Program-made: the position numbers and the translations under genes
The notes under the pieces: model-generated
The model's database searches: none
Told to the model about the DNA's origin: nothing
Seen by the model: the letters and a program-made list of their open reading frames with translations, nothing else
Source: a virus
Virus record (IMG/VR): IMGVR_UViG_3300024262_003767
Strand: one strand, 5' to 3'
DNA length: 64,000 nt
Shown here: piece after piece, positions 3,484-41,106 of the stretch
Layout of the letters: every line of letters begins with the position of its first letter
Position numbering within the stretch: the first letter of the stretch is position 1

Positions 3484-3671
3484 TTTCTTGTGATTTTATC
3501 GAAAATCTTATCTCCATAATATTTTATAACGGTGGCAATTGTTGATATAACAAAAGATGCAACGATACTATCAAGTAATCCGAAACCATAAAATACCATA
3601 GATATTGTTATTACTATAAATATTAGTAAAAATAAGATTTTATATTTCTCCATTATTTGTGTAACTTTCAT
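3462..3671 (-). CDS. Small membrane protein (two predicted TM helices)
   Basis: Hydrophobic stretches ILFLLIFIVITISMVFYGFGLL and IVASFVISTIATVI. Confidence 0.45.
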   Translation of the reverse strand: MKVTQIMEKYKILFLLIFIVITISMVFYGFGLLDSIVASFVISTIATVIKYYGDKIFDKITRKWFSKNK

Positions 3672-3689
3672 ATTATGATTTATTTATTT

Positions 3690-5657: not shown

Positions 5658-6491
5658 TTATATAATTTTTAATTTTTTAAGTTTATCTTTATCATAAACT
5701 TCTATTTTTTTGTCTCTATATTGTTTTTTAAAAGCAAGATATTTATCTTTTGCATCATCTCTCCACCAGCCTTTAACTTCAACATATAAATCACAATCAA
5801 TAAGGTAAAAATCTGGTCTATATGTTCCTTCAGCATTATTATAATTGATAGGAAATGCTTCTGGTTCAAAGAACCATTCTATGTTATTTTTATCCAAATA
5901 AGTTGCATATTTTATTTCCCAAGAACTTCTCATCCACACAGAATCACCATTTTTACATTTATACCATTCACCTTTACCATGATAACATTTACCATAAAAA
6001 TTAGATTCCTTACCTCTTTTTACATTTTTACTTTTATTGATTAGCATTTTTTGATATCTTATGTTTGCTTCTATTTCGCCATATTTTTCTAACCAAACAC
6101 TAAATACTGAACGACCATACATTGGATTTTTATCACCAGACATTTTGACACTTATCTTTTTTTTAGTTTTGTCTGAATGATAATTACCTATGTTAGATTG
6201 ACTTATTTTTTTCTTTACCTCGTCTGTTCTATGCTTACCTTTAAAATGATGTGTATTATTTTTGTGCCATTCGATAAGTTTTTCAATCTTAACATCTTTA
6301 TTTGTATTCGCATTCACTTTATTAGAACACGATAAGCATAGATCATTTTTAACTGCATATCTATATTTTTTTTCTACTTCAGCATCACAATCTTTACATT
6401 TCCAAATTACAGTCTTTTCGCTACTTGGTTTCAAATCATTTGAATAATACCCAAACATATCCTTTGTTTTTTGTTCTAAAATAATACCCAT
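5658..6491 (-). CDS. Homing-endonuclease-like protein (NUMOD3 repeats + PD-(D/E)xK core)
   Basis: CKDCDAEV..CLSC zinc ribbon; NUMOD3-like KISQSNIGNYHSDKTKKKISVKMSGDKNPMYGR; C-terminal YRPDFYLID..LYVEVKGWW; TATATATA box at 6514. Confidence 0.6.
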   Translation of the reverse strand: MGIILEQKTKDMFGYYSNDLKPSSEKTVIWKCKDCDAEVEKKYRYAVKNDLCLSCSNKVNANTNKDVKIEKLIEWHKNNTHHFKGKHRTDEVKKKISQSNIGNYHSDKTKKKISVKMSGDKNPMYGRSVFSVWLEKYGEIEANIRYQKMLINKSKNVKRGKESNFYGKCYHGKGEWYKCKNGDSVWMRSSWEIKYATYLDKNNIEWFFEPEAFPINYNNAEGTYRPDFYLIDCDLYVEVKGWWRDDAKDKYLAFKKQYRDKKIEVYDKDKLKKLKII

Positions 6492-7838: not shown

Positions 7839-8660
7839 TTAAGAAATGTTTTCAAGTTTTAATGCTCTGATTTGTTTTTTAGAAAAAATATTAGTTTTTG
7901 ACTTCTTTATTAAATGTGAAAATATTTTATTTTGTATTAATTTTTTCTTTACGGAAAAATCCGCATTTACTATTTTTTCTTCAAATTCAATTAAACATTC
8001 AGGCTCACGACCATCACCTAAATAAACTTTATCTCCTACTGTGTGAAACCAAAACCATTCTATTTTAATGTCATTTTCTTTAAACAATTTATCTACTTCT
8101 GAACTTAAATAATAATAAAAATATGTTAATAATTCAGTTAAAAATTCAGTTTCAGAAAATCCATCATTACTATTTAAATAATAATACCAAAAATTACTAG
8201 GTTCAACACCTAACTCAAGACAAAGATTATCAATTTTATCAATATTTTTGTTGGTTTTATTAAAAACATAGTCATTAAACAAACTTTTAAATGATTTAGT
8301 ATCTCCATTACCTTTATCACAATTACATTTTGAACACATTGTCTGATAATTGGTAGAAGTGTTTTTACCACCTTTAGATTTTGGTATGATGTGATCTTTC
8401 GTCATTAAAATTTCATCACCGTTTTCATTTACACCATACATATTGATGTGATATTTTTCAATTTCGGGTAAATGCTTCTCAATTGCTAAAAAAATTCCTT
8501 CAAGTCCACATTCAACACAGAATCTATTTTCTTGAAATAATTTGTATCGTTGTGAGGTTATCTTAACAGTAACCCCGTTAATTGTTCGGTATCTATTTGG
8601 TCCTACACTATCCTTTAGTTTTTTTAAATAACTTATATCTAATTTACTATGTCTTATCAT
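7839..8660 (-). CDS. HNH homing endonuclease
   Basis: CVECG zinc knuckle, then HNH core LMTKDHIIPKSKGGKNTSTNYQTMCSKCNCDKGN. Confidence 0.75.
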   Translation of the reverse strand: MIRHSKLDISYLKKLKDSVGPNRYRTINGVTVKITSQRYKLFQENRFCVECGLEGIFLAIEKHLPEIEKYHINMYGVNENGDEILMTKDHIIPKSKGGKNTSTNYQTMCSKCNCDKGNGDTKSFKSLFNDYVFNKTNKNIDKIDNLCLELGVEPSNFWYYYLNSNDGFSETEFLTELLTYFYYYLSSEVDKLFKENDIKIEWFWFHTVGDKVYLGDGREPECLIEFEEKIVNADFSVKKKLIQNKIFSHLIKKSKTNIFSKKQIRALKLENIS

Positions 8661-8675
8661 CTTTTTATTTAAAAA

Positions 8676-9188
8676 TTATTTCAGGTAAATAGGATCAACG
8701 TGATCAACTAACCATACACCATTTTCTGATTGATAAAATTTAATTTTATCAACAATCATTGGATAAGTATCAATTTTGAAGATATATGGAGTATCATTTT
8801 TACAATATCTATTTGCAACATCTAAAGCAGTATCATAATCAGCACTTAGATGTACATGATTTCTTTTCATTTTAGAAAGTCCATTTTTTCTAATTGATTT
8901 AACATTTCTAGATGCTGTGCCGTGATATAAAAATTTTGGTGGCATCTTTGATTTCAATTCAACATCAACTTTTAAAGAATGTCCTTGATTTGCTCTAATT
9001 TTAGTTTCATCTTCATTAAAACTAAATCTTTTCTTATCATTATTATCTACAATCCATTGTAAATCTTCAAATGATATATTAACTTTATTCAATAAATCAT
9101 CAACATCAACCCAACCATTTTTATCCATAGACAAATCTTCTGGGTTATGTCTTAATAAATAACTTATTTGTATTCCTTTATTTTTCAT
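8676..9188 (-). CDS. kptA: RNA 2'-phosphotransferase Tpt1/KptA
   Basis: Near end-to-end match to KptA landmarks: LSYLLRHNP, GWVDVDDLL, DKKRFSF, IRANQGHS, PPKFLYHGTASR, HVHLSAD, ENGVWL. Confidence 0.93.
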   Translation of the reverse strand: MKNKGIQISYLLRHNPEDLSMDKNGWVDVDDLLNKVNISFEDLQWIVDNNDKKRFSFNEDETKIRANQGHSLKVDVELKSKMPPKFLYHGTASRNVKSIRKNGLSKMKRNHVHLSADYDTALDVANRYCKNDTPYIFKIDTYPMIVDKIKFYQSENGVWLVDHVDPIYLK

Positions 9189-10275: not shown

Positions 10276-10515
10276 ATGAAAACAATGAAAACTATGCTAA
10301 TAATTTTAGCAATCCTAATGTTAGGAACAACACTTGGAACATCAACACCAAAAGTAAATGAATCTATTTTTGATTTTCCTGAAGAAGAATATATTGATGA
10401 TATTCCTTTTGATACAGATAAGGTAATTAACCAGGACACTTTTAAAATGGAAGAAGAAGGTTATATTGATGATATTCCATTTAATACAGAAAAAGTTGTA
10501 GAAGAATTATCATAA
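10276..10515 (+). CDS. Signal-peptide/anchor protein with two EE.YIDDIPF[DN]T.KV repeats
   Basis: MKTMKTMLIILAILMLGTTLG hydrophobic N-terminus; start uncertain (10219, 10255 or 10276); internal tandem repeat. Confidence 0.5.
   Translation: MKTMKTMLIILAILMLGTTLGTSTPKVNESIFDFPEEEYIDDIPFDTDKVINQDTFKMEEEGYIDDIPFNTEKVVEELS
10381..10500 (+). repeat. Imperfect direct repeat (about 45-50 nt units) encoding the IDDIPF motif twice
   Basis: gaagaagaatatattgatgatattccttttgatacagataaggta versus gaagaagaaggttatattgatgatattccatttaatacagaaaaagttgta. Confidence 0.7.
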
Positions 10516-11070
10516 TTCCTCTACAACTATATTTGTCTTATTGTGTTCGTGATCTGAATAAATATATTTACTTCCAAATAATGGCACTTCTTTCAAATTA
10601 TCTTTTACATACTTACCCCCCATTCCTTTCTTAACATAAGCAATTGTCATGTGTGCATGATAATCTGGATGATTATTTGTGTATTCAAATCTAAAGCACA
10701 TAGTCTTATTAAGTTCTCTTAACTTATCTGAGTGAATATCAAATTTAACAACATCATATTCATCTTGTTCAAATATTGTTATATCACCTCTCATAATATC
10801 ATCTATATCTTCCAATTTAGGTAAATATGTTTTGATATCTTTTGCTATACCATCATAGTGATGAAATCCATATAAAATTGTACAATGTGCCTCATCTTCA
10901 TATCCATAATCATTTGTATCATCATCATCTTGTGATGTGTAAATATCTTCTTCTGGTATCATTCTTCTAATAAATTCGATCCAATTACTAAAAGAAAAAT
11001 ATAACATCAGACAACCTAATTTTGGTTTATCATCTTCCATATAGTTATCAAATTTTAGTATTTCAGCCAT
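10510..11070 (-). CDS. 2H phosphoesterase superfamily protein (LigT/CPDase-like)
   Basis: Two HxT motifs, AHCTILYGF and AHMTIAYV. Start moved to MAEILKF (ATG at 11070), 20 nt from the TATATATA box. Confidence 0.65.
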   Translation of the reverse strand: MAEILKFDNYMEDDKPKLGCLMLYFSFSNWIEFIRRMIPEEDIYTSQDDDDTNDYGYEDEAHCTILYGFHHYDGIAKDIKTYLPKLEDIDDIMRGDITIFEQDEYDVVKFDIHSDKLRELNKTMCFRFEYTNNHPDYHAHMTIAYVKKGMGGKYVKDNLKEVPLFGSKYIYSDHEHNKTNIVVEEL

Positions 11071-11090
11071 AATTTTAATGCTTTTTCTTT

Positions 11091-11098
11091 TATATATA
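11091..11098. promoter_or_regulatory. TATATATA box centred in a divergent intergenic region
   Basis: 20 nt from the minus-strand ATG at 11070 and 22 nt from the plus-strand ATG at 11121. Confidence 0.45.
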
Positions 11099-11120
11099 AA
11101 TAAAAATATTTTTTGTTTAA

Positions 11121-11684
11121 ATGACTGAAAATTTAATAATTGTTGATGTACAACCAACATATAACAAATTTATAGATTTTGATATTGGTGAATTTGTTAG
11201 TTGGATAAATAACTCATCTTTTGATGAGGTTTTTTGTTTATATAATGGTCCTGAATTAGGTTATGAAGATGATGAATGGAGAATATCAAATTGGTATTAT
11301 GATTGGGGATTAGATAGGGATATAAGTTTTAGATTTTTTGAAAAATCTTATGGTTGGTTTCGTGATTTTATGGAAGATATGGATGATGATAATATAATTT
11401 CTATTGGTAAATATATGATAGAACACGACATATGGGATTCGAGATATTTTAAAAAGAAAGATATAAAAATTTTAAAAGATAGAGGAATAAGTACAAGGTA
11501 TTTAGGTAAAGAAAGTAGAGTAATGTATATACCTGAATTAAAAGATTACTTATCAAATAATATATATACTAACGAAGAAATTATTATTTGTGGTGGTGGT
11601 GTCGATGAATGTTACAAAGAAGTTAATATGTTATTGGAAATGATGGGATATAAATTTAAAGAAAAAATAAAATTTGTCTATTAA
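11121..11684 (+). CDS. Hypothetical protein, weak isochorismatase-like pattern
   Basis: LIIVDVQPTY at the N-terminus and IICGGGVDECY near the C-terminus resemble the cysteine-hydrolase fold; weak. Confidence 0.5.
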   Translation: MTENLIIVDVQPTYNKFIDFDIGEFVSWINNSSFDEVFCLYNGPELGYEDDEWRISNWYYDWGLDRDISFRFFEKSYGWFRDFMEDMDDDNIISIGKYMIEHDIWDSRYFKKKDIKILKDRGISTRYLGKESRVMYIPELKDYLSNNIYTNEEIIICGGGVDECYKEVNMLLEMMGYKFKEKIKFVY

Positions 11685-15604: not shown

Positions 15605-16657
15605 ATGAAACATATTACACCTTTTAAAATTTTTGAAAATATCTCATATGATAAATTAGTTCCAATAGCAACAAATGAAATTAATTGGGGTTGGGAAGAC
15701 GATTCTGTTCATATTAAAGCGACAGTATTTTTCGATCCAACTGGTTCAGGCGAATTATTTTTAAGTATAAGAAGAGTACACACAAAACATGGACTTGGTG
15801 CTGGCAAATTTCCAAGTGATGTAATATCTTACGAACCAATAGGAACAATTGATAAACCAGATTTAAGAAAAGTACAACAATTATTGAGTAAACATAAATA
15901 TGGAACTTCATCTCGTGCGGGTGGAGGTGGTTTCAAAAGACAGTGGACTGACAATAAAGGTGATAATGTAGCTCTTGGTAAAATTATAACTAATTCTAGA
16001 TATCTTAAAATGTCCAATTTAAAAAACAAATTAGCAAAAAAACATACACCAAAAACTGAGATAATTGAAGATATAAAGATTATGAAATATGGTAGAGGTT
16101 ATGTTGTTTATGGACAAGGTACAAAGGCTATTAAGGATAAATTAAAACAAATTGGTGCTAGATTTAATTTTAGATTAACACATCCTGTAACAAAAGAAAA
16201 ATTTGTAGGTTGGGTTATTTCACCAAGCAAATTAAATGATGTTAAACAACTAGCTGGGGTTAAAATTATAACAGAATCTTATGTTTCCCAAAATTTAAAA
16301 AATGATATAAAAGAAAATTTTGATGATGGCGAATTGGTTAGATTTTTTCCAAAAATATATGAAGAATTTTTTGATATTATAACTGAAGATGATGAATTGG
16401 ATTATTCTGATTCTGATGAAGATGATATAGAATTTGATTTTGCTGAAGCCGTCAAAATGTACATTATGGATAATTTTGATGAAACATTAGAAATTAATTT
16501 CTTAGAATCATATTTAAATGAAAAGGAATTTAGTTCACCTTCAAAAGATTATAGAGATCTAAGTGAAAATGCTAAAATTATTTATGATAATTTAGAACAA
16601 AGATTAGAAATAGTTTTTTGGACTGCGTTAGAAAATCAATTAATAAGTAGTTTATGA
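15605..16657 (+). CDS. Hypothetical protein with acidic C-terminal half
   Basis: ORF track; contains DDIEFDFAEA, shared with the next ORF. Confidence 0.55.
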   Translation: MKHITPFKIFENISYDKLVPIATNEINWGWEDDSVHIKATVFFDPTGSGELFLSIRRVHTKHGLGAGKFPSDVISYEPIGTIDKPDLRKVQQLLSKHKYGTSSRAGGGGFKRQWTDNKGDNVALGKIITNSRYLKMSNLKNKLAKKHTPKTEIIEDIKIMKYGRGYVVYGQGTKAIKDKLKQIGARFNFRLTHPVTKEKFVGWVISPSKLNDVKQLAGVKIITESYVSQNLKNDIKENFDDGELVRFFPKIYEEFFDIITEDDELDYSDSDEDDIEFDFAEAVKMYIMDNFDETLEINFLESYLNEKEFSSPSKDYRDLSENAKIIYDNLEQRLEIVFWTALENQLISSL

Positions 16658-16986
16658 AATATTTAAAAGTTTACGAAGAACACACCAAAAAGTATATGCC
16701 TATCTGTATATGGATTGGAGAAGGTGAGGATAGTTGGGATAGTTATTTTTCTGATGATATTGAATTTGATTTTGATGAGGCTCAAACTCGGTTATCAACT
16801 ATGAGAAGCGATTGGGAAAAGAATCAACCTGATGTGTATGATCATTATAAATTATCATTTATGGTTATACCATATTACAAATATGTTGCTATTCAAGATA
16901 TCGAAAAAGGTAGTGAGATAATGGAGTTATTAAATGATAATGAAAGATTAAATTTATTGATACAGTCAAAAAAATATAATTTATGA
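16654..16986 (+). CDS. Hypothetical protein
   Basis: ORF track; 4-nt ATGA overlap with upstream gene; DDIEFDFDEA; ends KKYNL. Confidence 0.5.
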   Translation: MKYLKVYEEHTKKYMPICIWIGEGEDSWDSYFSDDIEFDFDEAQTRLSTMRSDWEKNQPDVYDHYKLSFMVIPYYKYVAIQDIEKGSEIMELLNDNERLNLLIQSKKYNL

Positions 16987-17408
16987 AAAAATTTGAAGAA
17001 TTTAAAATTAATGAATCTTCAACACTCAAATACTCTGTTGTTGGAAGATTTATGACTAATAATGTTAAAAAATGGTTTTTTTCTGAGAATGACAATTTTG
17101 CTGAACTTAATTATTGGAACAAGAATCCAGATTATGCTTTTGAATTTAAACTCAAAAATTTCGATAAAGATATAATATCAAGGGTTGAAAAAATGAGAGA
17201 TTTTTTTAACTTAAAAAGAGATTGGAAAATAGTAGCAATAACATCAAGTAGAGTAGGGTTTTATTTTCATATAAAATCTGATGATATGCCTATAATCTTA
17301 GAAAGATTAAAAGAAATAGATCCTGAAAATATTAAAACAATTGATAGTCTTTTAAAAGGTTTAGAACAACGAAAAATATTAAATACTGCTAATAAATATA
17401 ATTTATAA
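16983..17408 (+). CDS. Hypothetical protein
   Basis: ORF track; 4-nt overlap with upstream gene; ends ANKYNL. Confidence 0.5.
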   Translation: MKKFEEFKINESSTLKYSVVGRFMTNNVKKWFFSENDNFAELNYWNKNPDYAFEFKLKNFDKDIISRVEKMRDFFNLKRDWKIVAITSSRVGFYFHIKSDDMPIILERLKEIDPENIKTIDSLLKGLEQRKILNTANKYNL

Positions 17409-17500: not shown

Positions 17501-18367
17501 ATGACGAAAGTAGATTACAAAACGAATTATATTGAACCTCAAGATTTTAACCTCTTAATTTCAAAATTAAGAGGATTTTTTATGGAAAATGGTTTCCTTG
17601 AGACATTTCCACAACCTAAATTAACAATACTTGCAGCGTGTGAAGACCCAAAAACTGTTAGAAGTTTTGAATTTGGTGGTGAAAAATTTCCACTACCCCA
17701 AACAAATCAGATGAACTTGGAAGAAGAACTTATGGTAGACTCAACAATAGATGGACTTTTTTGCTTAACAGCATCATATAGAGATGAACCAAACCCTATT
17801 GAAGGTCGCCACATGAAATCATTTCCAATGTTTGAAGCAGAACATAAAGGGGATTTTTCAAATCTAATACAAACAATAAGTGAGTGTTGTGTGTATTTAG
17901 GTTTAGTCGAAAAGGTTGCCGATATCCCAATATTCACATATGATGAACTTTGTGAACATTATAAAGTTGAAGATTTAACTTCTACTGAAGAAACATTGAT
18001 GTGTAAAGAATATGGTGATGTTGTCGCTATTACTATGTTTCCTGATAGGACAGATCCATTTTTCAACATGCGTGTTGATGGTTGTAACTTAAAAGGTGAA
18101 AAATTGTCCAACAAAGTAGATTTTATTGTTTGTGGACAGGAAACATTTGGTTGTGCTGAAAGAGAGATAGACATAAACTTAATGAGGAATAACTTCCACA
18201 CAATTAGTAATGGCGGGTATTCTGGACTATTATTTGAAAAATTTGGTAAGGAAAGAGTTGAAAAGGAATTGGAAGACTTTTTGAAATTGCCAATGATTGA
18301 AAGGTGGGGATTTGGTTGTGGTTTGACTAGATTATCAAGAGCAATGAAAAAGAAAGGATTAATTTAA
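17501..18367 (+). CDS. Stand-alone class-II aminoacyl-tRNA-synthetase catalytic core (AsnA/EpmA/AspRS-AsnRS-like), no anticodon-binding domain
   Basis: Motif-2-like ASYRDEPNPIEGRHMKSFPMFEAE and motif-3-like GFGCGLTRLSRAM; 288 aa. Confidence 0.6.
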   Translation: MTKVDYKTNYIEPQDFNLLISKLRGFFMENGFLETFPQPKLTILAACEDPKTVRSFEFGGEKFPLPQTNQMNLEEELMVDSTIDGLFCLTASYRDEPNPIEGRHMKSFPMFEAEHKGDFSNLIQTISECCVYLGLVEKVADIPIFTYDELCEHYKVEDLTSTEETLMCKEYGDVVAITMFPDRTDPFFNMRVDGCNLKGEKLSNKVDFIVCGQETFGCAEREIDINLMRNNFHTISNGGYSGLLFEKFGKERVEKELEDFLKLPMIERWGFGCGLTRLSRAMKKKGLI

Positions 18368-19362
18368 TTAATCCTTTCTTTTTTTAGTAAAATATAATTT
18401 TTACTGATGGAATTATTTATTATTCCTTCATAACTTATTCTATTTGAACCTATCAAATTTAATTTGATATTAAGTTCATTAAAATATTTTCTCATTTCAT
18501 TTCTACCTTGAAATTCTTCAATTTTATCATCTGGACATTTTATTGTATATAACATCAATTTTCTATGTGACATTTGTGATGATTTATTTGTTCTTTTATT
18601 TACACTCCAACTCATATTTCGATAATCATTAGATTTATTATATAGATTATATCCTTTAGATCCATTTTTATATAATATTGCTGCTGGGCTTATTTTGTGT
18701 TTACCTGTTAATTTTTTTTCTTCATTCAATTCTCTAAAATACCCATGTACATTTTTTGAACCACTCATTTTTATTATATCTCCTTGTGGTGTCTTTATTT
18801 CATAAATTACTGATAGTGTTTTTTTTATTTTGTCAATAGTAATGCTAGTTTTATTTTTTTTGTAATTGGCGTTTTTGTGTGTCTCATAATACCTTTTTAA
18901 AGAGTCTCCAATTTTTTTCAATTTAGTTGCACTTCGTTTACTTTCTTGAAATTTTTTTGATATTTTTAACGATGCTGATATATTCTTTTTATGTTTATCT
19001 GTAAAAATTACACCACTTTCACCTTCACCACCATCACTTAAATTTATTAATGATCCTAATTTTAAATCTTTCCTTCCTATCTTTTTTATTGTAAGTTTTT
19101 CTAAATTAAATGATATATTTTCCTTTAAATTTTCATACAATTTAATAATTATTGGTTCTACCCCACTCTCTCTAATTTTTTTAATTTTATAGTACCGTAT
19201 TTTACTTTTTTTTATAACACTTTCATATAAGTGTACTTTAAATCTATCACCCTTACCTTTACCGACATAAAATGGTTCATGATCAAAAATTAAATCATCA
19301 AAAATATATTTACCAGGTTTTCTTGGATCTAAATAAACATAAACATAAAATTCATCACACAT
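18364..19362 (-). CDS. GIY-YIG homing endonuclease
   Basis: FYVYVYLDPRKPGKY ... PFYVGKGKGDRF; NUMOD3-like KHKKNISASLK; antisense, with 3' overlap with the aaRS-like gene. Confidence 0.75.
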   Translation of the reverse strand: MCDEFYVYVYLDPRKPGKYIFDDLIFDHEPFYVGKGKGDRFKVHLYESVIKKSKIRYYKIKKIRESGVEPIIIKLYENLKENISFNLEKLTIKKIGRKDLKLGSLINLSDGGEGESGVIFTDKHKKNISASLKISKKFQESKRSATKLKKIGDSLKRYYETHKNANYKKNKTSITIDKIKKTLSVIYEIKTPQGDIIKMSGSKNVHGYFRELNEEKKLTGKHKISPAAILYKNGSKGYNLYNKSNDYRNMSWSVNKRTNKSSQMSHRKLMLYTIKCPDDKIEEFQGRNEMRKYFNELNIKLNLIGSNRISYEGIINNSISKNYILLKKERIN

Positions 19363-20790: not shown

Positions 20791-21897
20791 CTATTTACCA
20801 AATCTACTTTTTGTTGAATTGTAAATTTGTAAACTCTCATCTGATGTTAAATTTCTATCATATATCATCAATTTACCAATAGAACCATTGCCGAAAGTAA
20901 AACTTCCATATTGGTTGAATTGTATCTGAGTCCATGATGATAATGCAACATTTTTAAATTCTAACATATGCCATTCACCATCTCGGATATAATCATATAT
21001 GTTTGGTGTATCAACCGTGTCCATATAAAAATCAGGAGTACCACAATTACCATAATATTCTTTGTTAGATGAACTATATGCACCAAGGTAAAATGCTGTC
21101 GTTTGTGCACCTAAAAATAATGCCTGTGTGTCTGTTGTTTTTATCCAAAATATAACCGTACAAGTATTTGAGTTTGTTATTGTGTCTGTACAGGTTATAC
21201 CACCATCAGTTAAATTAAATATTTCTTCAAAACTGTCATGAACTATACCAGAACCGTCAAGAGAGAAAGATAAGTTTCTATTCACATCATACCAAGTAGT
21301 GTTGGTTCGTTGAGGTCCAGTAAAATTTGTCATATAAGATTTCTGTTCTATTTGTGGCGCATAAAAAGCATATTTATTTCCAGTTGAACCACCATAAGAA
21401 CTAATATACATTGAAGTCACATCTGTAGCAGGAGTTGTAAAAGTTTTAGATATTCTTATCCATCTATTTGAGGGCCAGGTGTTCCACGATGAACTTCCTT
21501 TATATTCTAAATATCCTTGATTTGTGTTGTGTGGTTGAGGTCTACAATACGGTGAACTTCCACCAATTATAGGTTCATTTTGCCAGAACCAAACAGATGC
21601 GGTATATTCTGTAGATGTTGTGACTGCGGCATTTCCACATCCCATATGGAGACTACCTGTTGTTGTAACTAGTTCAGATAATACACTATAACCTGGAAAA
21701 GGAGGATCAATAGTCAAATCGTTTGAACTCCAAGTAGCAGCACCAGAATTAACCCAACTAGATCTCCAACTTAATGAATTGTCAGATTGATATGATAGAT
21801 TAGTAGTAGATTCACCAGGAAATGAATTCAAATCTTTGGCATCTAAATTTATTAAAAGTCCATCTGTTACTATTTTTGGTCCTATTGATACTCCCAT
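20791..21897 (-). CDS. LamG/concanavalin-A-like jelly-roll structural protein (fibre or receptor-binding candidate), paralogue 2
   Basis: MGVSIGPKIVTDGLLINLDA.. N-terminus and ..MIYDRNLTSDESLQIYNSTKSRFGK Laminin_G_3-type ending; paralogous to the upstream gene. Confidence 0.6.
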   Translation of the reverse strand: MGVSIGPKIVTDGLLINLDAKDLNSFPGESTTNLSYQSDNSLSWRSSWVNSGAATWSSNDLTIDPPFPGYSVLSELVTTTGSLHMGCGNAAVTTSTEYTASVWFWQNEPIIGGSSPYCRPQPHNTNQGYLEYKGSSSWNTWPSNRWIRISKTFTTPATDVTSMYISSYGGSTGNKYAFYAPQIEQKSYMTNFTGPQRTNTTWYDVNRNLSFSLDGSGIVHDSFEEIFNLTDGGITCTDTITNSNTCTVIFWIKTTDTQALFLGAQTTAFYLGAYSSSNKEYYGNCGTPDFYMDTVDTPNIYDYIRDGEWHMLEFKNVALSSWTQIQFNQYGSFTFGNGSIGKLMIYDRNLTSDESLQIYNSTKSRFGK

Positions 21898-23243
21898 TAT
21901 TTACCAAATTTACTTTTTGTTGAATTATAATTTTGAATGGCTTCTGACTCTAAAATTGCTCTATTGTAATATTTAAAAATTGATATATATCCGTCAAAAT
22001 AAGATCCATATGATGCGTGAGCAGTTCCATACCCTTTACCAATACTACTAATAGTCACATTATTGGTTGTGAATGATGGAGAATACACTCCGATATATTC
22101 CCCATCAAAATAAAGAGTTTGTGCTCCATTAGTTGATGTTATTATCACATGGTGCCAGTTTAAATCGGCAACAACACCAGTATTAAAAACTCCCCAATAT
22201 TCTTCATTAATATCTCTTTCACCTCTAAATTGAAATGTATTTGAAACTATTGTATAATCAAGAAGTTGCATATAACCAGCAACACCATTCAATAATCGTA
22301 ATGCGTTATTAGTATTTGTTACATCTTGTGAAGTTAATGTGTTTCGTTTAACCCAAAATTCAACAGTACAAGAATTGAGATCTATTATTGTTGTGTTTAT
22401 ATCAACTTTATTGCCGCTTGTTACACCACCACTAAAATATATTTGTTTGTTACTATCATAGGACATATTTGTAATGTCTCCATTATTGTTACCTATTAAA
22501 TCCACCCAACCTTTTGTTGGTGATACACCCAATAAATCTCTAATATAAGGTTCTGAACCATCACACTTATCCATTCTTGGGTCATAAAATTGTAATTGAG
22601 TTGTACCATCAGTACAATAGTAATGATAAGTTCTATGATATGATGTTGTTGTTGATGGGTTCCACTTACAATCAACACCTATATTACAACCATTAATATC
22701 ACCAATTCTACCACTAGTTGAATACACACCCGTATCATTGTGTCTAGTTGTACCGTCATATGTATGGTAAAAACAATGTCCAACATATAAATACCATTGA
22801 TCTTTTATTAAAGATGATGTTGCTGAACAATTCCAATATGGATTACCACCTTCAGAACCATCTAATTTTACAACAGTAGGACCTAATCCAAAATAAAAAG
22901 TGCCACCACCAGAATCAGAAATTCGTTTTACCCAAATGGAAAATCTATAAGTATAATTAACATCTACACTATAAGATGATGTATTCCAACCACCATCTGC
23001 GTCACTAATTGTGTTTCCACTTGTCTTCCATACAACTGCCGATTCCCCCATAGGGTTTATATCTACAATTCTACTATTCTCACTAGTTGCACCATTTTGA
23101 CTAAATCCAGTCACACCACCTGTTCCAACAGTCCAATTATCCATATTAATATCAGAATGTCTAACATAAGATCTACTATTTGTTGCATCTAAACATAAAA
23201 CTAAACCGTCTGTTACTATTTTAGGACCAACAGTTACACCCAT
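21897..23243 (-). CDS. LamG/concanavalin-A-like jelly-roll structural protein, paralogue 1
   Basis: MGVTVGPKIVTDGLVLCLDA.. and ..KYYNRAILESEAIQNYNSTKSKFGK; TAATG stop/start overlap with paralogue 2. Confidence 0.6.
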   Translation of the reverse strand: MGVTVGPKIVTDGLVLCLDATNSRSYVRHSDINMDNWTVGTGGVTGFSQNGATSENSRIVDINPMGESAVVWKTSGNTISDADGGWNTSSYSVDVNYTYRFSIWVKRISDSGGGTFYFGLGPTVVKLDGSEGGNPYWNCSATSSLIKDQWYLYVGHCFYHTYDGTTRHNDTGVYSTSGRIGDINGCNIGVDCKWNPSTTTSYHRTYHYYCTDGTTQLQFYDPRMDKCDGSEPYIRDLLGVSPTKGWVDLIGNNNGDITNMSYDSNKQIYFSGGVTSGNKVDINTTIIDLNSCTVEFWVKRNTLTSQDVTNTNNALRLLNGVAGYMQLLDYTIVSNTFQFRGERDINEEYWGVFNTGVVADLNWHHVIITSTNGAQTLYFDGEYIGVYSPSFTTNNVTISSIGKGYGTAHASYGSYFDGYISIFKYYNRAILESEAIQNYNSTKSKFGK

Positions 23244-24949: not shown

Positions 24950-25249
24950 TTACCTCTCTTTTTTTAATCGTTTTGTTTTTTGTTTTCGTAATTGCCTTCG
25001 TAATGCTTCAGTTGCCATATCAATTGAACGTTCAAAGTTTTCAGATTGTTTTTTTGAATATAAAGAACAACCTTGACAATTTAATTTAATTTCAACAATT
25101 TTATTTTCAGGTTTATTCCCTATTCCTAATATTACGTCAACATCTATAATATGTTGATGATGTTCTGTTAATTTTTTAATTTTTTCTTTTATAAAAAAAA
25201 CGAGTTTATTGTCTGTTTTAAAATGAACAGATTCAATGTTTAAATTCAT
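24950..25249 (-). CDS. hpf: Ribosome hibernation promoting factor (short HPF/RaiA)
   Basis: MNLNIESVHFKTDNKLVFFIKEKIKKL ... ATEALRRQLRKQKTK; matches short HPFs over the full length. Confidence 0.85.
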   Translation of the reverse strand: MNLNIESVHFKTDNKLVFFIKEKIKKLTEHHQHIIDVDVILGIGNKPENKIVEIKLNCQGCSLYSKKQSENFERSIDMATEALRRQLRKQKTKRLKKER

Positions 25250-26772: not shown

Positions 26773-27324
26773 ATGGAACAATTAATTTGGAAAAAATGGA
26801 ATCGGGAAACTATTGATGATATCAATCAGTATGTCTTGGATTATGTAAAAAATGTTGATAGGAATGTTAAGATTATTGTTGGTTGTGACTCACATCCACA
26901 TAGAAGAAGATTAGTATATGCTGTCACTATTATTTTATATAATGAATCACTCAGAAAGGGTGCTCACGTTGTTTATGCTAAAGTAAAAATACCAAGATTG
27001 CGTGATGTTAGTGCAAAAATTAGAAAGGAAGCAGAATTTGTTTATACTGTTGCTGAATCCTTAGACCAAACATTAAGGGGCACTTACTATCATAAGTTTG
27101 ATAAAAATACTTACGATGATACTATCCCAACCAAATTAGTTGAAGTTCACGTTGATGTTAATCCTAAGAGAAACACAAGAAATGGTAGAAAATATTCAAA
27201 TAACTTATCTAATGATGTATATCAAGAAATTATGGGTTGGTTATGTGGTTCAGGTTTCAAGGTGTTCGCTAAACCACATGCGTATGGTTCAACTGGATCT
27301 GCGGATAAATTATCAAAAAGTTAA
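26773..27324 (+). CDS. YkuK/DUF458-like RNase H-fold protein
   Basis: IIVGCDSH, YAVTIILY, VEVHVDVNP, GSGFKVFAKPHAYGSTGSADKLSK match the recalled YkuK pattern. Confidence 0.55.
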   Translation: MEQLIWKKWNRETIDDINQYVLDYVKNVDRNVKIIVGCDSHPHRRRLVYAVTIILYNESLRKGAHVVYAKVKIPRLRDVSAKIRKEAEFVYTVAESLDQTLRGTYYHKFDKNTYDDTIPTKLVEVHVDVNPKRNTRNGRKYSNNLSNDVYQEIMGWLCGSGFKVFAKPHAYGSTGSADKLSKS

Positions 27325-27361
27325 ATTAAAAAGCCTAATTATATTAGGCTTTTTAATTTAA
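27321..27361. terminator. Bidirectional terminator, ~19-bp perfect palindrome including both stop codons
   Basis: ttaaattaaaaagcctaat tat attaggctttttaatttaa between convergent genes. Confidence 0.7.
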
Positions 27362-28216
27362 TTCACCTTCCCAAACAATTTTATATTCATATTTACCTGG
27401 TAGTAGTATAATTTCTCTTTGATTTGTATGGTAATATTGTGTTGGTAATTTCTGTACGTCAACTAGTACATCTTTAGGTTGTACTTCCATCATAATAACA
27501 AAAGGTGGTGATGATGGTTGTTCATCCACAAATCTTCTAGCCACTAATATATTTGTAGTCCAAGATGTCGACATATTGAAATCGGATATAACTTTTTCAC
27601 CAACTTTGTATGGTGGGGTTTTTTTTGAAAAATGTTTTATTTGAACTTCTTCAATACCTTTATAAATCTTTAAAGGTTTATCTGGTTTAAAAGGTTTTAA
27701 TTCGTCTATAATATCTTGTGTTAATTTTGATAATAACAAAGAGCCAGAACCTATATATGAATATAACCAATCATCAGTTTTTTCAGATAATTCAACATTT
27801 ATCCTTTCAGGTGTATGTTTATCATATTTAGTAAATCCTCCAATGTAACGAAAAGATATCACATCTCCATTTTTAATTCTTGCTAACCATTCACCTGTTA
27901 TTGAATGTTTATAAAAATAACCAGAATAATCATCAACATCAACTTCTTCATCTTCACTAAATCCAAAAAAATCTACAATTTGTTTATATAGAGGTTTTTT
28001 TGTTTTAATTTGATAGATATATTCACTATTTATATCAGATGCGTCTGCTCTATTTGTTAAATAGATTCTTTTTAAATGATTTAGATTACTAAAATCTATA
28101 TCTTCTAATTTTAATGGTTCATCAGAATATAAATATAAATTTCCATTATATGTTTTTTGATCGTAATCTACTTCATTATAATCTACAAGTTCAAATAATT
28201 TGAATTTAGTTATCAT
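27353..28216 (-). CDS. Candidate ADP-ribosyltransferase (C3/Vip2-like R-S-E class, variant K-STS-QxE) with unknown N-terminal domain
   Basis: KIYKG (aa 183-187), FNMSTSW (aa 213-219), TNQREIILLPGKYEYKI (aa 264-280; compare the C3 exoenzyme QxE ARTT loop as recalled, roughly Q.E.LLPR....Y.I). 11-nt overlap with the CCA-enzyme gene. Confidence 0.4.
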   Translation of the reverse strand: MITKFKLFELVDYNEVDYDQKTYNGNLYLYSDEPLKLEDIDFSNLNHLKRIYLTNRADASDINSEYIYQIKTKKPLYKQIVDFFGFSEDEEVDVDDYSGYFYKHSITGEWLARIKNGDVISFRYIGGFTKYDKHTPERINVELSEKTDDWLYSYIGSGSLLLSKLTQDIIDELKPFKPDKPLKIYKGIEEVQIKHFSKKTPPYKVGEKVISDFNMSTSWTTNILVARRFVDEQPSSPPFVIMMEVQPKDVLVDVQKLPTQYYHTNQREIILLPGKYEYKIVWEGELN

Positions 28217-29465
28217 TCATAAGATATTCATTTTTGAAACGCACAATCTCTCGTCTTTTCTTTTCTATTTCAATTTCAATTCCTTTGAAACCTTCAGCAG
28301 CTAAATCATTACCATTAACCACAAATCCATCATTACAATAATCAACAAATGGTTTATAGAATTCTTCACCCAAAAACTCATAAATTAAATCATCATCAAT
28401 ATGATATTGATTTTTCATTTTAGCCAAACCGTAAACATTTGAAACGTCAATGTTTTTAAATGATTTCCAATGTAAATCTAATTCCTTCTCAAGTTTGAGC
28501 AAAAATTCAATCTGGTTCACTAACTTGGAACTAAATTTCAATTCACTAATCATATATTTTCTCAATTTACGAATATCATTATCACGAAGTAAATGTGCAA
28601 ATAATATTGCGGAAATAGGTTTTGGTGTAAATCCATCGGGAGATATTTTCAATTTGGGAAACATTTGTTCCCACATATCATATTCAGTTAATAGTCTGAT
28701 ATAATTTTCTAATATTTTGTTTCCGCCTTTTTCTGCGTGTTCAATTACCTTATTCCATTCTTCATGTATTCTTTCTTGTGATACATCTTCTTTGGTACTT
28801 ATACCACGTAGTCTGTTATCACTTTTAATGGCTCTTGATGTCTCAGGTGATATGATACCACCTTTTCTACCTTGGGCTCTTGCAGCGAATCTAAATACTC
28901 TTAAAATTCTTAATCTATCTTCTTTAAATCTCTCAGCAGGATCACCAACAGCACGTATAACATTATTTTCAATATCTTTAACTCCACCAACCAAATCTAC
29001 AATTTCTTTTTTATTTATATCATAGAAAAGAGCATTGATAGTTAAATCTCTACGTTTAACATCATCTTCGATTGTAATATGGTTTCCAATTTCTACTTTA
29101 TCATCATCACCTTTTGTATCTCTACCTCCAGAAATATCTTTTCTAAAAGTTGCTAATTCGTGTCCGAGTGGTTCATCTTCAGTATAAATTCTAAGTACGC
29201 CAAAATTTTTACCTTGTTCATCAGAAACATTCCAACCTTTCAAAATTCTTTTACTTTCTTCTGGTAGAGCATTTGTGACTAAATCAAAATCATGTGGTAT
29301 CTTTTTTTGCAAAAAATCACGAACCGCTCCACCAACAACATAGATATCTTTACCAGCATTATTGAAGGCTCTTGATATTTCTTTAATGTCATAAGGAATA
29401 GGCATCTCAACAGAGATAGTATTTTCAGTTATAAATTCTAAATATTTTTTTAATTTTTCTACCAT
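28206..29465 (-). CDS. cca: tRNA nucleotidyltransferase (CCA-adding enzyme / poly(A) polymerase family)
   Basis: VVGGAVRDFLQKKIPHDFDLVT, RRDLTINALFYD, ERFKEDRLRILRVFRFAAR. Confidence 0.85.
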   Translation of the reverse strand: MVEKLKKYLEFITENTISVEMPIPYDIKEISRAFNNAGKDIYVVGGAVRDFLQKKIPHDFDLVTNALPEESKRILKGWNVSDEQGKNFGVLRIYTEDEPLGHELATFRKDISGGRDTKGDDDKVEIGNHITIEDDVKRRDLTINALFYDINKKEIVDLVGGVKDIENNVIRAVGDPAERFKEDRLRILRVFRFAARAQGRKGGIISPETSRAIKSDNRLRGISTKEDVSQERIHEEWNKVIEHAEKGGNKILENYIRLLTEYDMWEQMFPKLKISPDGFTPKPISAILFAHLLRDNDIRKLRKYMISELKFSSKLVNQIEFLLKLEKELDLHWKSFKNIDVSNVYGLAKMKNQYHIDDDLIYEFLGEEFYKPFVDYCNDGFVVNGNDLAAEGFKGIEIEIEKKRREIVRFKNEYLMNDN

Positions 29466-35490: not shown

Positions 35491-35772
35491 TTAAATATTA
35501 AGCTTATTTTTATTCTTGATAGCAGTTTTTAAGAGATACTTCATTAGAGCATCAAATTTAATTCCTTTTTCTTGACATAGTTCTGATGTTTCTTTTAACA
35601 ATTCATCATCCAAATCTAACAAAACAACATTATCACTTTCTACATAAAACTTGGAGAAGTTTCTGAGAACTTCAGACATTGTTTTATTTTTATCATCACA
35701 AGTCTCTTGAAAATACCCATACAACTCTTCTGATATTCTTAATTTTAAAAATTTTTGTTTTTCCATAGACAT
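35491..35772 (-). CDS. Ribbon-helix-helix-like protein (two RHH-like repeats)
   Basis: FLKLRISEELYGYFQETCDDKNKTMSEVLRNF and VLLDLDDELLKETSELCQEKGIKFDALMKYLL. Confidence 0.4.
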   Translation of the reverse strand: MSMEKQKFLKLRISEELYGYFQETCDDKNKTMSEVLRNFSKFYVESDNVVLLDLDDELLKETSELCQEKGIKFDALMKYLLKTAIKNKNKLNI

Positions 35773-36869: not shown

Positions 36870-37331
36870 ATGATTACCATTTTTAAAATATATGAGACTT
36901 GGAATGATGATACCATAGATAAATCGTTATTTGTTAGTGGTCGTGCTAAACATAATCCTAAAGTAAAAAACGATATAATAGAGTATAAAACTGATAATGG
37001 TAAATATGTAGCAAAGATTAAAAAATTGTCAAATGGTAAGTTTATTTGCAAAGTATATAGAATAAGAGACGATGGTAGTAAAATTAGAATTAGAAAGAAA
37101 GTAAAAAAAACGTTACAAACCGCTCATAATTTTATTAGAGAATTTCTAAATGATAGACTTGAAGGTAAAAAAATTAAAAAATCTAAAAAGAAAGAAAACA
37201 AAAAACAAAAGGATGATGATCCTCTTGATAAATTATTTGTGGATATTGACGAACCTGGGTTTTCAGATTCAGATTTTGATTTTAGCGAACCTAAAAAACC
37301 AAGAAAAACTATAATTAGAAGGTTTACTTAA
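36870..37331 (+). CDS. Basic (Lys-rich) hypothetical protein
   Basis: ORF track; KKIKKSKKKENKKQK tract. Confidence 0.45.
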   Translation: MITIFKIYETWNDDTIDKSLFVSGRAKHNPKVKNDIIEYKTDNGKYVAKIKKLSNGKFICKVYRIRDDGSKIRIRKKVKKTLQTAHNFIREFLNDRLEGKKIKKSKKKENKKQKDDDPLDKLFVDIDEPGFSDSDFDFSEPKKPRKTIIRRFT

Positions 37332-38334
37332 TCTTATTTTCTAAAATATTTTCAATATTTTTAAATTGAGTGTAGGCTATTCTCAACATTTTTATATCAT
37401 TTTCCTTACAATATTTATTTTTAATTTTATCATTTTGTTTCGTATATTTTAATCTTTCTTCACCTCCAAAATGTTCAACAGATTTATAATGTTGTATACC
37501 ATCATATTCCACACACATATTAAGTTCAGGTAAATAAAAATCAAAATGTAAAACTTGTTTATTTTTACATCCATTGAAAGTATATTGAGGTTCAAATTTA
37601 ATATTATTTTCTTTCAAATAATTTAATATTATTTCTTCTCCTTTAGATTGTTTACAACCTGGACAACCAACACCTCGCAAAATAGCGTTTGGTGTTATTT
37701 CCCATATATTATCACATTGATTACATTTTATTTTAACTTTATTATTTGCTTTAATATATTTACCTATAACTTCATATTTATCACCATGTACATTAAAAAC
37801 ATCTTTGATAAATTGTTCAGGTGTTTTTCTTTGTTTTTCACCCTTTTCTTTTGCTGAACATTCTGGACATTCACATTTTGTGTGTGATAAATGATACGGT
37901 TTAATTTTCCATATATTTTCACATATTTTACACCTAACCTTTACTTTTGTATTAGCATTAATATAATCTGATAAAAGTTCATACTTATCACCATAGTTAT
38001 TATTAAATTCTTCTTTAAATTTTTCTGGGGTTTTTCTTTGTTTTAAAACTGCACATTGTTTACAACCTCTACCCCTTAATAATGAATTACCGTTAGTTTT
38101 CCATTTATATCCACATTCATTACATCTAACTTCTATTTCTGATTTAGAATTTATGTAAGGTGATAATGTTGTAAATTTATCACCATAATTTTCCTTTAGT
38201 CTTTTTTGAAACCTTTCTTCTGAAAAACTTTTTGGTGCTAATTCGTGTGTTTCCCTATATTTTTCTTTTAGTTTTTTAAGTATTTTTTCTTTATTTTTTA
38301 GATAATATTGTTTATGCCATTCCTTATTATACAT
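37324..38334 (-). CDS. Homing-endonuclease-like protein (three zinc-ribbon repeats + Vsr/DUF559-type nuclease core)
   Basis: 3x [VRC.EC/IC..W...P..L..G.GCP.C]; C-terminal HFDFYLPELNMCVEYDGIQHY; TATATATT box at 38350. Confidence 0.55.
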   Translation of the reverse strand: MYNKEWHKQYYLKNKEKILKKLKEKYRETHELAPKSFSEERFQKRLKENYGDKFTTLSPYINSKSEIEVRCNECGYKWKTNGNSLLRGRGCKQCAVLKQRKTPEKFKEEFNNNYGDKYELLSDYINANTKVKVRCKICENIWKIKPYHLSHTKCECPECSAKEKGEKQRKTPEQFIKDVFNVHGDKYEVIGKYIKANNKVKIKCNQCDNIWEITPNAILRGVGCPGCKQSKGEEIILNYLKENNIKFEPQYTFNGCKNKQVLHFDFYLPELNMCVEYDGIQHYKSVEHFGGEERLKYTKQNDKIKNKYCKENDIKMLRIAYTQFKNIENILENKIK

Positions 38335-39402: not shown

Positions 39403-39912
39403 ATGAATTGGTATGTAATACGAGTAGTAACTAGTAAAGAAAAGAAAACAAAAGAATTAATTGAAAAAGAATTGGAACTATATAAATTAGATAATAAAGT
39501 GTCTCAAATTTTGGTTCCAAGTAAGAAAGTGATGCAAATGAGAAATGGTAAAAAATATACTATTGAAAAGAATGATTTTCCAGGATATATTCTCATCGAA
39601 ACGGATAAAGTTGATGAACTAGTTTCAACTATTAAAAATGTTTCAAATGTTTTAGGGTTTTTAGGTGTGACTCACCCAGAACCACTAAGGCAAAGAGAGG
39701 TGGAAACAATCGTTGGTAGACAAAATAACACAATAGTTGAAGATAAATATTTTATTGGTGAAGTTGTAAAAGTCACCGACGGTCCTTTTAACTCATTTGT
39801 TGGTGAAATTATTCTAGTGAATGATAAGAAGAAAGCTGTAAAAGTGAACATTAAAGTTTTTGGACGTGATGTTCCAGTAGATTTGACTTATATTCAGATA
39901 GAAAAGAATTAG
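39403..39912 (+). CDS. nusG: Transcription termination/antitermination factor NusG
   Basis: NGN start NWYVIRVVTSKEKK; KOW GEVVKVTDGPFNSFVGEIILVNDKKKAVKVNIKVFGRDVPVDL. Confidence 0.85.
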   Translation: MNWYVIRVVTSKEKKTKELIEKELELYKLDNKVSQILVPSKKVMQMRNGKKYTIEKNDFPGYILIETDKVDELVSTIKNVSNVLGFLGVTHPEPLRQREVETIVGRQNNTIVEDKYFIGEVVKVTDGPFNSFVGEIILVNDKKKAVKVNIKVFGRDVPVDLTYIQIEKN

Positions 39913-39975: not shown

Positions 39976-41106
39976 TTATTCCTCTTTTTCTTTAACTAAG
40001 TTAAGATATATCTTTCTATCATCTTTGATAACAGAAATAACCTTAACTTTTACTTGATCACCTTTCGTTAATTTGGCATTATTCTTCACAAGGTATGTGG
40101 TTTGTATTAACCCCATAGTTTCATAGTCAAGTGAAATTAATGCTCCAAAATTTTTCACATCAATTACTTTTCCTGATAATATTTTACCTACTTTAATTTT
40201 ATCCCAAAGAGACTCTTTTAAAGATTGTGTTAGTATAATCTTTTGACTTTTTGTGATTTCCTTAACATAAAAATCAATTGCCATACCAGGTAGGATTTGG
40301 TGCCATCTATCTTGCCACTCAGTATTTATGTTCATTTTATGAATCATACCTGTAAGACAATTATTGAATTGAACAAATACTCCAAATGGTGTTGTTCCAG
40401 TAACTTCGCCTGCATAAACGACATCATTTTTTAGTTTTTTGATCTCTTCTGGTATAAGTGTCTTAAGATATTTTCTTCGTGAAACAACATAAACCCCCTT
40501 TTCTTGTTGCAATGTCTCTAACATCACATTTAGAGTTTCACCAATAATTGATTCAGGATTTGCGAGTTTATTAACATCAGCTAATGTATTTGGCATAAAC
40601 GCATCGATAGTTACATTATCCATATAAATATCAAGCATATAGCCTGCTGGTATTAATTCCTTCACCTTAGCAACAAGTGATAATCTTTCTTCATAATAAG
40701 TTTTCAATTTATTATGAACATTCATTTTAATTAATTCTGTAATAGATCCTCTTATTAAGAATGGATCGTCTTGAATTGATGTTATTAGTACATCAATTTG
40801 TGAACCAGGCTCTAACCCTATCACTAATTTTCCTTTTGGTGTGTCAACATAAATGTAGTCTTTATACCCAAAATCAACAGTTATTTCTGTATCATCTATA
40901 GATACTATCACACCTTTGATTATTTCCCCTTCTCTTACTTCTCTTAAATCAAGAAAAGTTTTTTCCATCATACGATAAAGATTTTGATAATCTTCAGTAA
41001 GATTAGATAAATCACCTTTTACTTTGATTATTTCTCTATCATTAGTTAGAAACGGAAAAGGATCAGGAAGTGATCCTACATTTACGCCTTCGATTAATTT
41101 CGACAT
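39976..41106 (-). CDS. rpsA: Ribosomal protein S1-like protein (four S1/OB domains, 376 aa)
   Basis: GEIIKGVIVSIDDTEITVDFG, GYMLDIYMDNVTIDAFMP, YAGEVTGTTPFGVFVQF..LTGMIH, LSGKVIDVKNFGALISL..GLI. Confidence 0.8.
   Translation of the reverse strand: MSKLIEGVNVGSLPDPFPFLTNDREIIKVKGDLSNLTEDYQNLYRMMEKTFLDLREVREGEIIKGVIVSIDDTEITVDFGYKDYIYVDTPKGKLVIGLEPGSQIDVLITSIQDDPFLIRGSITELIKMNVHNKLKTYYEERLSLVAKVKELIPAGYMLDIYMDNVTIDAFMPNTLADVNKLANPESIIGETLNVMLETLQQEKGVYVVSRRKYLKTLIPEEIKKLKNDVVYAGEVTGTTPFGVFVQFNNCLTGMIHKMNINTEWQDRWHQILPGMAIDFYVKEITKSQKIILTQSLKESLWDKIKVGKILSGKVIDVKNFGALISLDYETMGLIQTTYLVKNNAKLTKGDQVKVKVISVIKDDRKIYLNLVKEKEE

Follow-up and report, generated by a model that had tools for sequence, protein, structure and literature searches.

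ADP-ribosyltransferases (ARTs) are a main tool by which phages reprogram their hosts, as exemplified by Alt, ModA and ModB of T4, and they are central to the arms race between phages and bacteria that is fought over nicotinamide adenine dinucleotide (NAD+). ModA and ModB are single-domain proteins of about 200 amino acids with an R-S-E-type core, and a preprint describes the RNAylation of proteins by ModB (bioRxiv 10.1101/2021.06.04.446905). Moreover, Iyer et al. (2022, PMC9503650) found ARTs in over 40 % of the jumbo phages and describe them as conflict effectors that typically evolve fast. Here, we describe a gene for an ART-family protein on a stretch of viral DNA of 64,000 nucleotides (IMG/VR record IMGVR_UViG_3300024262_003767), which is referred to in its full length as the window and has a G+C content of 24-31 %. 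We consider it likely that the gene encodes a NAD+-using mono-ADP-ribosyltransferase of the R-S-E (cholera-toxin/C3-like) clade, which is a remote relative of ModA and ModB in an uncultured, very AT-rich huge phage. Given the frequency of ARTs in jumbo phages, such an enzyme was to be expected here, and for this reason the family alone opens no long-standing question. What is new is an unannotated ART family that was not encountered in 50,697 deposited phage genomes, a natural K-for-R variant of the R-S-E triad, which can be compared with sisters that bear Arg, and a probable tandem-ART architecture within 287 amino acids, which makes the protein a compact target for structural study. The family is missed by standard annotation, and defining it widens the ART repertoire of huge phages.

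The ART gene (27353..28216 including the stop codon, minus strand) starts with an ATG that is unambiguous because an in-frame TGA lies immediately 5' of it. The protein consists of an all-beta N-terminal domain (residues 1-143; 27788..28216, minus strand) and a C-terminal domain of the catalytic ART type, which is ModA/ModB-like and belongs to the R-S-E clade (residues 144-287; 27356..27787, minus strand). In the latter, two N-terminal helices precede a beta core. Motif I, Y185-K186-G187 (27656..27664, minus strand), is part of the peptide KIYKG (residues 183-187; 27656-27670) on the strand 182-189 and has Lys in place of the canonical Arg; besides the translation, its assignment is based on conservation and on the alignment with R73-G74 of ModB. 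The STS-like motif II, S216-T217-S218-W219 (27560..27571, minus strand), aligns with the conserved Ser of ModA and ModB. Motif III, the Q-x-E motif N265-Q266-R267-E268 (27413..27424, minus strand), aligns with E171-x-E173 of the T4 enzymes and is directly followed by IILLPGKYEYKI; E268 is the predicted catalytic Glu. An earlier note on this DNA had proposed the same open reading frame (ORF) and the three motifs, and translation places all of them where they had been claimed. Its reading of the C-terminal part as an ART also holds, the R-S-E-clade domain comprising about 140 amino acids, as does the variant triad, in which motif I has Lys for Arg, motif II contains Ser and motif III has the form Q-x-E.

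A model of the full protein was computed with AlphaFold2 from a 43-sequence alignment and reached a predicted local distance difference test (pLDDT) value of 86.4 and a predicted template modelling (pTM) score of 0.78. From residue 182 onwards, the modelled order is the K186 strand, a helix, a strand, the S218 strand, a helix, two strands, a short helix, the strand starting with E268 and a last strand, which is the order expected for R-S-E ARTs. The STSW motif lies on the strand 217-220 and is followed by the helix 223-229, and E268 opens the strand 268-271. At the level of the fold, the model suggests the split beta-sheet of the ART superfamily with its NAD+ cleft. The motif II of the R-S-E clade (Ser-x-Ser/Thr, a strand and then a helix) is present with W at the third position of the classical S-T-S, and so is motif III ([Q/E]-x-E, the Glu opening the strand after the ADP-ribosylating turn-turn (ARTT) loop), as Q266-R-E268 is found in 43 of 43 aligned homologs. 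For motif I (aromatic-Arg-Gly), place and context fit and the residue is Lys. A Foldseek comparison with the PDB, as recommended in the earlier note, put ART folds on top at weak E-values of 0.05-0.5. The best matches were CDTa, iota Ia, C2-I, C3larvin, C3bot1 and ART2.2, and further structural neighbours were C3bot2, C3stau2, Vis, Certhrax and VIP2.

Like the C3 exoenzymes, the protein has a Q-x-E motif and an alpha-helical N-lobe ahead of the beta core. However, searches with PDB sequences and profiles detected no sequence-level similarity to C3 or to toxins of the Vis/Certhrax/VIP2 type, there is neither a signal peptide nor a toxin-delivery context, and the protein has Lys and T-S-W where these toxins have Arg and S-T-S. 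The enzymatic components of binary toxins (iota Ia, C2-I, CDTa, VIP2) were aligned by Foldseek with the full model over 290-377 columns. As in these components, two ART-like domains are probably present and the canonical motifs are confined to the C-terminal one. The phage protein is shorter (287 versus about 410-430 amino acids) and comes without a B (translocation) component, and its N-terminal domain is rich in invariant polar residues and as conserved as the catalytic half, unlike a mere adaptor.

The kinship to the T4 enzymes was assessed with hhalign, for which the sequences of ModA, ModB and Alt were taken from the T4 record. The C-domain profile of the wider family (A3) matched ModB alone at 92.4 % (E 5e-7) and a ModA/ModB profile built from seven sequences at 96.5 % (E 8.6e-10). 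The latter alignment extends over 130 columns and keeps the three motifs in register, K186-G187 corresponding to R73-G74, S218 to the serine of V-S-F and Q266-x-E268 to E171-x-E173. ModA alone was matched at 6 %, with the motifs nonetheless aligned. Thus, ModA and ModB, which the earlier note had named as precedents, were recovered at the profile level, and Alt, which had been named together with them, was not (0.6 %). The tail after the Glu is alike as well, reading E-W-M-I-P-I-G-K-Y-K-I in ModB and E-I-I-L-L-P-G-K-Y-E-Y-K-I in the ART protein. The best match of A3 in the PDB was a weak one to the ART SpvB (E 0.41), aligned on YRG. The T4 enzymes and the ART protein are all phage-encoded, but their identity is about 20 % or less. 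In contrast to ModA and ModB, which have Arg and E-x-E, the ART protein has Lys, Q-x-E and W after the Ser, it possesses the additional conserved N-terminal domain of 143 amino acids, and its family was found only on contigs of uncultured huge phages. The precomputed label PF26816, which marks ModB homologs, is attached to none of 48 close homologs, and the local Pfam copy that was scanned holds no ModA/ModB model. From these sequence data, we read the family as remotely related to ModA/ModB rather than as part of that family.

The 287-aa protein has no match in Pfam (E <= 1), PHROGs, NCBIfam or among the PDB sequences (phmmer), and a profile of the close family (A1) retrieved nothing but chance matches to beta-lactamases from the PDB. 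The 48 close full-length homologs are all metagenomic, share 46-69 % identity and carry neither a Pfam label nor a source name beyond 'hypothetical protein'. Conservation was evaluated in an alignment of 43 of them, for which the identity ranges from 46 to 71 %. In the C-terminal half, G187, E189, V191, S218, W219, N222, F229, D231, S235, Y261 and N265-Q266-R267-E268 are invariant, and in the N-terminal half the same holds true for N55, Y66, Y68, K71, S98, G99, G127, Y131 and D132. Position 186 is occupied by K in 41 and by R in two of these 43 sequences. When 1.84 billion representatives were scanned exhaustively with HMMER, 63 proteins were obtained as the wider family. The distant members share 19-35 % identity, often lie within larger proteins of 250-610 amino acids, and have the C-domain consensus Y-R-G ... 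S-W-T ... [Q/E]-x-E-[VI]-[IL]-x-P-G-x-Y. Of 38 sequences of the wider family, 33 have R at position 186, in the motif I context Y/F-R-G, compared with four that have K and one that has C. At position 266, Q (22 sequences) is more frequent than E (14), and W219 and E268 do not vary down to about 25 % identity. Thus, the canonical R-S-E triad is present in the wider family, and the Lys is specific to the subfamily to which the window protein belongs. The invariance of S218, Q266 and E268 among the 43 close homologs, together with that of E268 in the wider family, is what would be expected of an active site under selection. Three distant members match Pfam DRAT and two match the PHROG 'RNA polymerase ADP-ribosylase', all of them weakly. 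A tblastn search of the 50,697 phage records with three family queries, namely the window protein and the Arg-bearing distant members P0062 and P0085, found no match. Moreover, the window holds no paralog of either domain of the ART protein, of ModA/ModB or of the ART-PolyVal domain. Distant members might occupy a head-morphogenesis (MuF/gp7) position; at the locus of one of them (L014), PHROG annotation was limited to one family of unknown function. The family member P0047 has an N-terminal extension (residues 1-125) with the pattern G-N-C-I-H-F ... E-H-T-W-I-E ... D-G-Y-K-I-D-P. In its Cys, His and Asp residues, the extension recalls a peptidase of the papain-like or transglutaminase-like type that would be fused to the ART protein, and it has no match in Pfam.

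How the enzyme might work can be outlined from these features. NAD+ would be bound in the cleft of the C-terminal domain, where K186 on the first core strand may stand in for the canonical Arg and S218 of T-S-W would also grip the dinucleotide. E268, which opens the strand after the ARTT-type loop, would then bring about the release of nicotinamide and the transfer of ADP-ribose. Q266 may help to choose the acceptor, and the Q-x-E motif in place of the E-x-E of ModA and ModB hints at a non-arginine acceptor. The N-terminal domain would most likely serve as a module for substrate recognition or regulation, a part that is played in VIP2, iota and C2-I by a degenerate N-terminal ART domain. The gene would be co-transcribed with an upstream nucleotidyltransferase gene in the window phage, yet without a functional tie. 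The most probable job of the enzyme would be to modify a host macromolecule during infection and thereby to reprogram or disarm the cell. The NAD+ salvage genes of the window, encoding a NAPRTase and an isochorismatase-family protein, count in favour of this reading. Several points weigh against it. The data show the fold, the homology, the alignment of the motifs, the conservation and the gene arrangement, and the enzymatic activity is predicted from them, as are the roles of the individual residues, the function of the N-terminal domain and the nature of the acceptor. That the motif residues surround a pocket is deduced from the secondary structure and the alignments. The subfamily has Lys for the motif-I Arg, and since Arg-to-Lys changes weaken the characterised R-S-E toxins, the activity could be reduced or altered. 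Furthermore, the link to the T4 enzymes hangs on the diverse profile A3, as the profile A1 does not reach ModB (2.6 %), and the close homologs lack the ModB label.

The lysine could also mean that the ART fold is crippled or has been repurposed. The protein would then be a pseudo-enzyme, a sensor of NAD+ or ADP-ribose, a decoy directed, for instance, against NAD-depleting defence systems or host ARTs, or it would simply hydrolyse NAD+ as a glycohydrolase that has no macromolecular acceptor. Such a role would fit the predominance of Lys among the close homologs, the invariant stretch G-I-E-E-V-Q, which directly follows the motif-I position and is the subfamily's own, the lack of a fully canonical triad in either of the two ART-like domains, and the NAD+ salvage genes carried by the phage. 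However, pseudo-ARTs usually lose the Glu, whereas S218, Q266 and E268 are strictly invariant here and E268 is retained across the wider family. Moreover, the two close homologs with Arg are otherwise indistinguishable from the rest, which suggests that K and R are interchangeable at this position. We therefore regard a crippled or repurposed fold as unlikely.

A different acceptor was suggested by the genomic neighbourhood. Directly upstream of the ART gene lies the gene for a class II nucleotidyltransferase of 419 amino acids with a PolyA_pol head (CCA-adding/PcnB family; 28206..29465, minus strand), which matches PF01743 (1.5e-30) and phrog_2244 'tRNA nucleotidyltransferase' (4e-52). The NCBIfam models for PcnB (1.4e-47) and for the CCA tRNA nucleotidyltransferase (3.3e-41) score about equally and both far under their cut-offs, and no other NCBIfam model reaches its cut-off either. 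The protein could be a CCA-adding, a CC-adding or an A-adding enzyme, or a poly(A) polymerase. The earlier note had called it a CCA-adding enzyme; the PolyA_pol-head nucleotidyltransferase is confirmed by PF01743, and the narrower name is not, given the tie between the CCA and PcnB models. The TAA stop codon of this gene at 28206 and the start of the ART gene overlap by exactly the 11 nucleotides that had been noted before (28206..28216, minus strand; ATGATAACTAA). Downstream, a palindromic hairpin of 19 pairs with T-runs on either side (27321..27361, no strand) bridges the gap of 28 nucleotides between the convergent stop codons of the ART gene and the ORF 26773..27324. It is one of three hairpins found by a terminator scan, in which 0.8 were expected, and probably acts as a bidirectional terminator that closes the unit. 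Overlap and shared hairpin make the nucleotidyltransferase and ART genes a two-gene unit in the window phage. A scan for sigma-70 promoters around the operon gave fewer matches than scans of shuffled sequences.

Based on this arrangement, the earlier note had proposed an RNA- or translation-directed module coupled to the CCA enzyme. The ART would modify an RNA end (the tRNA 3' end, a 5'-phosphate or a 2'-OH) or RNAylate proteins with NAD-capped RNA, alongside the nucleotidyltransferase and RNA-repair genes centred on Tpt1. The overlap and the common terminator would fit this proposal, and so would genes for Tpt1, a weak 2H-like match, a cREC protein and a NUDIX protein within the window. The adjacency of the two genes is also preserved in L008, a syntenic relative with the homolog P0009 (57 % identity). 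Apart from L008, it is retained only in L009-L011, which represent the same phage in other samples. In three further lineages (L001-L003, L004-L005 and L006-L007; 53-64 % identity), no nucleotidyltransferase gene lies near the homolog. There, unrelated small ORFs and a gene for an unknown protein of about 800-830 amino acids are located upstream, and zf-CDGSH, response-regulator, ExoX-like and UvsW-like genes are located downstream. Even in L008, a second ART gene separates the two genes. Overlaps between the start codon and the preceding stop codon are the rule at the homolog loci, with 4 nucleotides in L001, L004-L005 and L008 and 1 nucleotide in L006, so that the 11-nucleotide overlap reflects ordinary phage gene packing. 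Thus, a conserved operon with a CCA enzyme was not found, and with the linkage lost in L001-L007 a module directed at RNA or tRNA is not supported. Furthermore, the genes for Tpt1 and the cREC protein are 18 kb and 24 kb away from the ART gene, respectively, and no RNA-binding domain was detected in the ART protein. The idea is mainly kept alive by motif III, because Q-x-E instead of E-x-E is the form present in the guanine-targeting pierisin and Scabin group, and by the RNAylation activity of ModB as the nearest sequence relative. An RNA-directed ART is, in our view, somewhat less likely still than a crippled one.

The second ART gene in L008 (5594-5995) encodes an ART-PolyVal protein of 133 amino acids (PF18760, 3.5e-10) and lies between the nucleotidyltransferase gene and that of P0009, which itself has an additional N-terminal extension of about 115 amino acids. 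Due to this insertion, the L008 phage possesses two different genes of the ART superfamily in tandem. ART-PolyVal, which is known from phage polyvalent proteins, resembles the ART protein in being a phage effector of the ART superfamily, but it has no detectable sequence relation to either of its domains. Just upstream of the L008 nucleotidyltransferase gene, there is a LAGLIDADG gene (3593-4369). The gene converging on the ART gene from downstream was considered as a conserved partner and rejected, as the RNaseH-like protein encoded by 26773..27324 (PF04308) is unrelated to the product of the 161-aa gene placed likewise in L001 and L004. The small upstream ORFs of L001, L004 and L006 were considered as split-off N-terminal extensions of P0009 and P0047, but inspection by eye revealed no obvious likeness apart from the common start MKYIK..FE.

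The earlier note had left the N-terminal 150 amino acids of the ART protein unassigned. Modelled alone, the N-terminal domain (pLDDT 81) forms seven strands with hardly any helix, and Foldseek returns ART folds for it. The models suggest that it is rather likely a second, very divergent ART-like fold. It has no match among the PDB sequences, and hhalign found no relation to ART-PolyVal or to the Tpt1 of the window and gave 0.6 % against the C-terminal domain, so that an internal duplication was not supported. The conserved stretches NRADAS (28037-28054), EYIYQIK (28004-28024), YSGYF (27914-27928) and IGGFxKYDK (27818-27844), all encoded on the minus strand, contribute to an invariant polar cluster composed of N55-R-A-D-A-S60, E65-Y-I-Y68, K71, S98-G-Y-F, D118 and Y131-D-K. 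In relatives with about 25 % identity, NRADAS..EYIYQIK is replaced by D-A-H..D-Y-x-Y-x-[IV]-K. The domain may be an adaptor, a regulator or a second site. The last possibility would amount to a double ART with two functional domains. The polar cluster would process NAD+ or ADP-ribose, or bind ADP-ribose, and cooperate with the K-S-(Q-x-E) domain on a non-arginine acceptor, possibly a nucleic-acid end that is handled by the co-transcribed nucleotidyltransferase. We consider this improbable; if it were true, huge phages would possess an ART mechanism of a new, two-site type. Finally, that the protein is not an ART and that its three motifs arose by chance in an alpha/beta protein without kinship to ARTs would agree with the lack of direct hidden Markov model matches in Pfam, PHROGs and NCBIfam and of matches to PDB sequences, but it is hardly credible in view of the independent evidence from the fold, the profile-profile alignments and the canonical R-S-E motifs in the wider family.

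The origin of the window from an uncultured huge phage can be deduced from its phage-type genes and from its relatives. In tblastn searches, the best relatives of the nucleotidyltransferase were encoded by two uncultured phages of 634 and 642 kb, and the ART homologs reside on metagenomic contigs of up to 205 kb, with UvsW-type helicases encoded at the loci that were fetched. The window itself mixes phage-type and bacterial-type genes, including one for an SMC/AAA_23 protein, and has no tRNA genes. Several of its genes form a dense NAD+/ADP-ribose network. As stated in the earlier note, a Tpt1/KptA RNA 2'-phosphotransferase is encoded (8676-9188, minus strand; PF01885, 6.6e-47), the PF01885 signature of which is not found in the ART protein. 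The genes for the weakly matching 2H/Acb1-like phosphoesterase (10510-11160), the NUDIX protein (3690-4088) and a protein resembling nucleoside 2-deoxyribosyltransferases (4706-5215) are also located on the minus strand. On the same strand, the cREC gene for a cyclic-phosphate-processing domain (52165-52569) lies 86 nucleotides upstream of the isochorismatase-family gene (51377-52078), which possibly encodes a nicotinamidase and has a 2-nucleotide overlap with the NAPRTase gene (50077-51375). This suggests that NAD+ salvage and NAD-dependent RNA-end repair are both encoded by the phage.

The phage also carries a set of genes for translation, transcription and proteostasis. These comprise a ribosome hibernation factor (S30AE/HPF; 24950-25249), an S1-domain protein (39976-41106), a peptide deformylase (5217-5651) and a ClpB/ClpC-type AAA+ chaperone (46956-49472) on the minus strand, as well as NusG (39403-39912) and a truncated protein of 288 amino acids resembling class II aminoacyl-tRNA synthetases, of which only the tRNA-synt_2 core is present (17501-18367), on the plus strand. 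Genes of the homing-endonuclease type are interspersed with the metabolic genes on the minus strand, namely HNH (7839-8660), NUMOD3 plus endonuclease I-like (5658-6491), GIY-YIG (18364-19362) and CapR/DUF4379 (37324-38334), which points to a reshuffling of the region by mobile elements. The CapR/DUF4379 gene also has PvuRts1I-like N-terminal matches. Two paralogs stand side by side (20791-21897 and 21897-23243, minus strand) and have the start MGV[ST][IV]GPKIVTDGL and the end STKS[RK]FGK in common. The longer one contains a Laminin_G_3/concanavalin-like domain, and the pair may represent tandem receptor-binding or structural proteins.

Many otherwise unrelated ORFs begin with a start peptide of the type M-K-Y-I-K-T-F-E, for instance MEHLKYFEG, and the consensus in the ART family is MKYIKTFELVDY. 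Such gene starts are found at 15605, 16654, 16983, 29530 and 36870 and, on the minus strand, at 28216, 29465 and 55721; they also occur in L001, L004, L006 and L008. A regular expression that was defined post hoc matches 10 of the 83 ORFs of the window compared with about 1 % of internal 13-aa windows. The peptide resembles MKTYQEFIAE, the capsid-targeting sequence of internal T4 proteins. It could equally be a translation-initiation signal at the nucleotide level in an AT-rich genome that lacks Shine-Dalgarno sequences. Small ORFs of about 90-280 amino acids terminate in K-[YFL]-N-[LI]-stop, which is often encoded by AAATATAATTTATGA with the stop codon overlapping the next ATG. They are located at 16654-16986 and 16983-17408 and, on the minus strand, at 35491-35772 and 55266-55721, as well as in L001, L004 and L006, and the DNA motif at their gene junctions is conserved. 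Moreover, a TATAAT-like hexamer is located 0-3 nucleotides 5' of several start codons, for instance those at 16983, 36870 and 51375.

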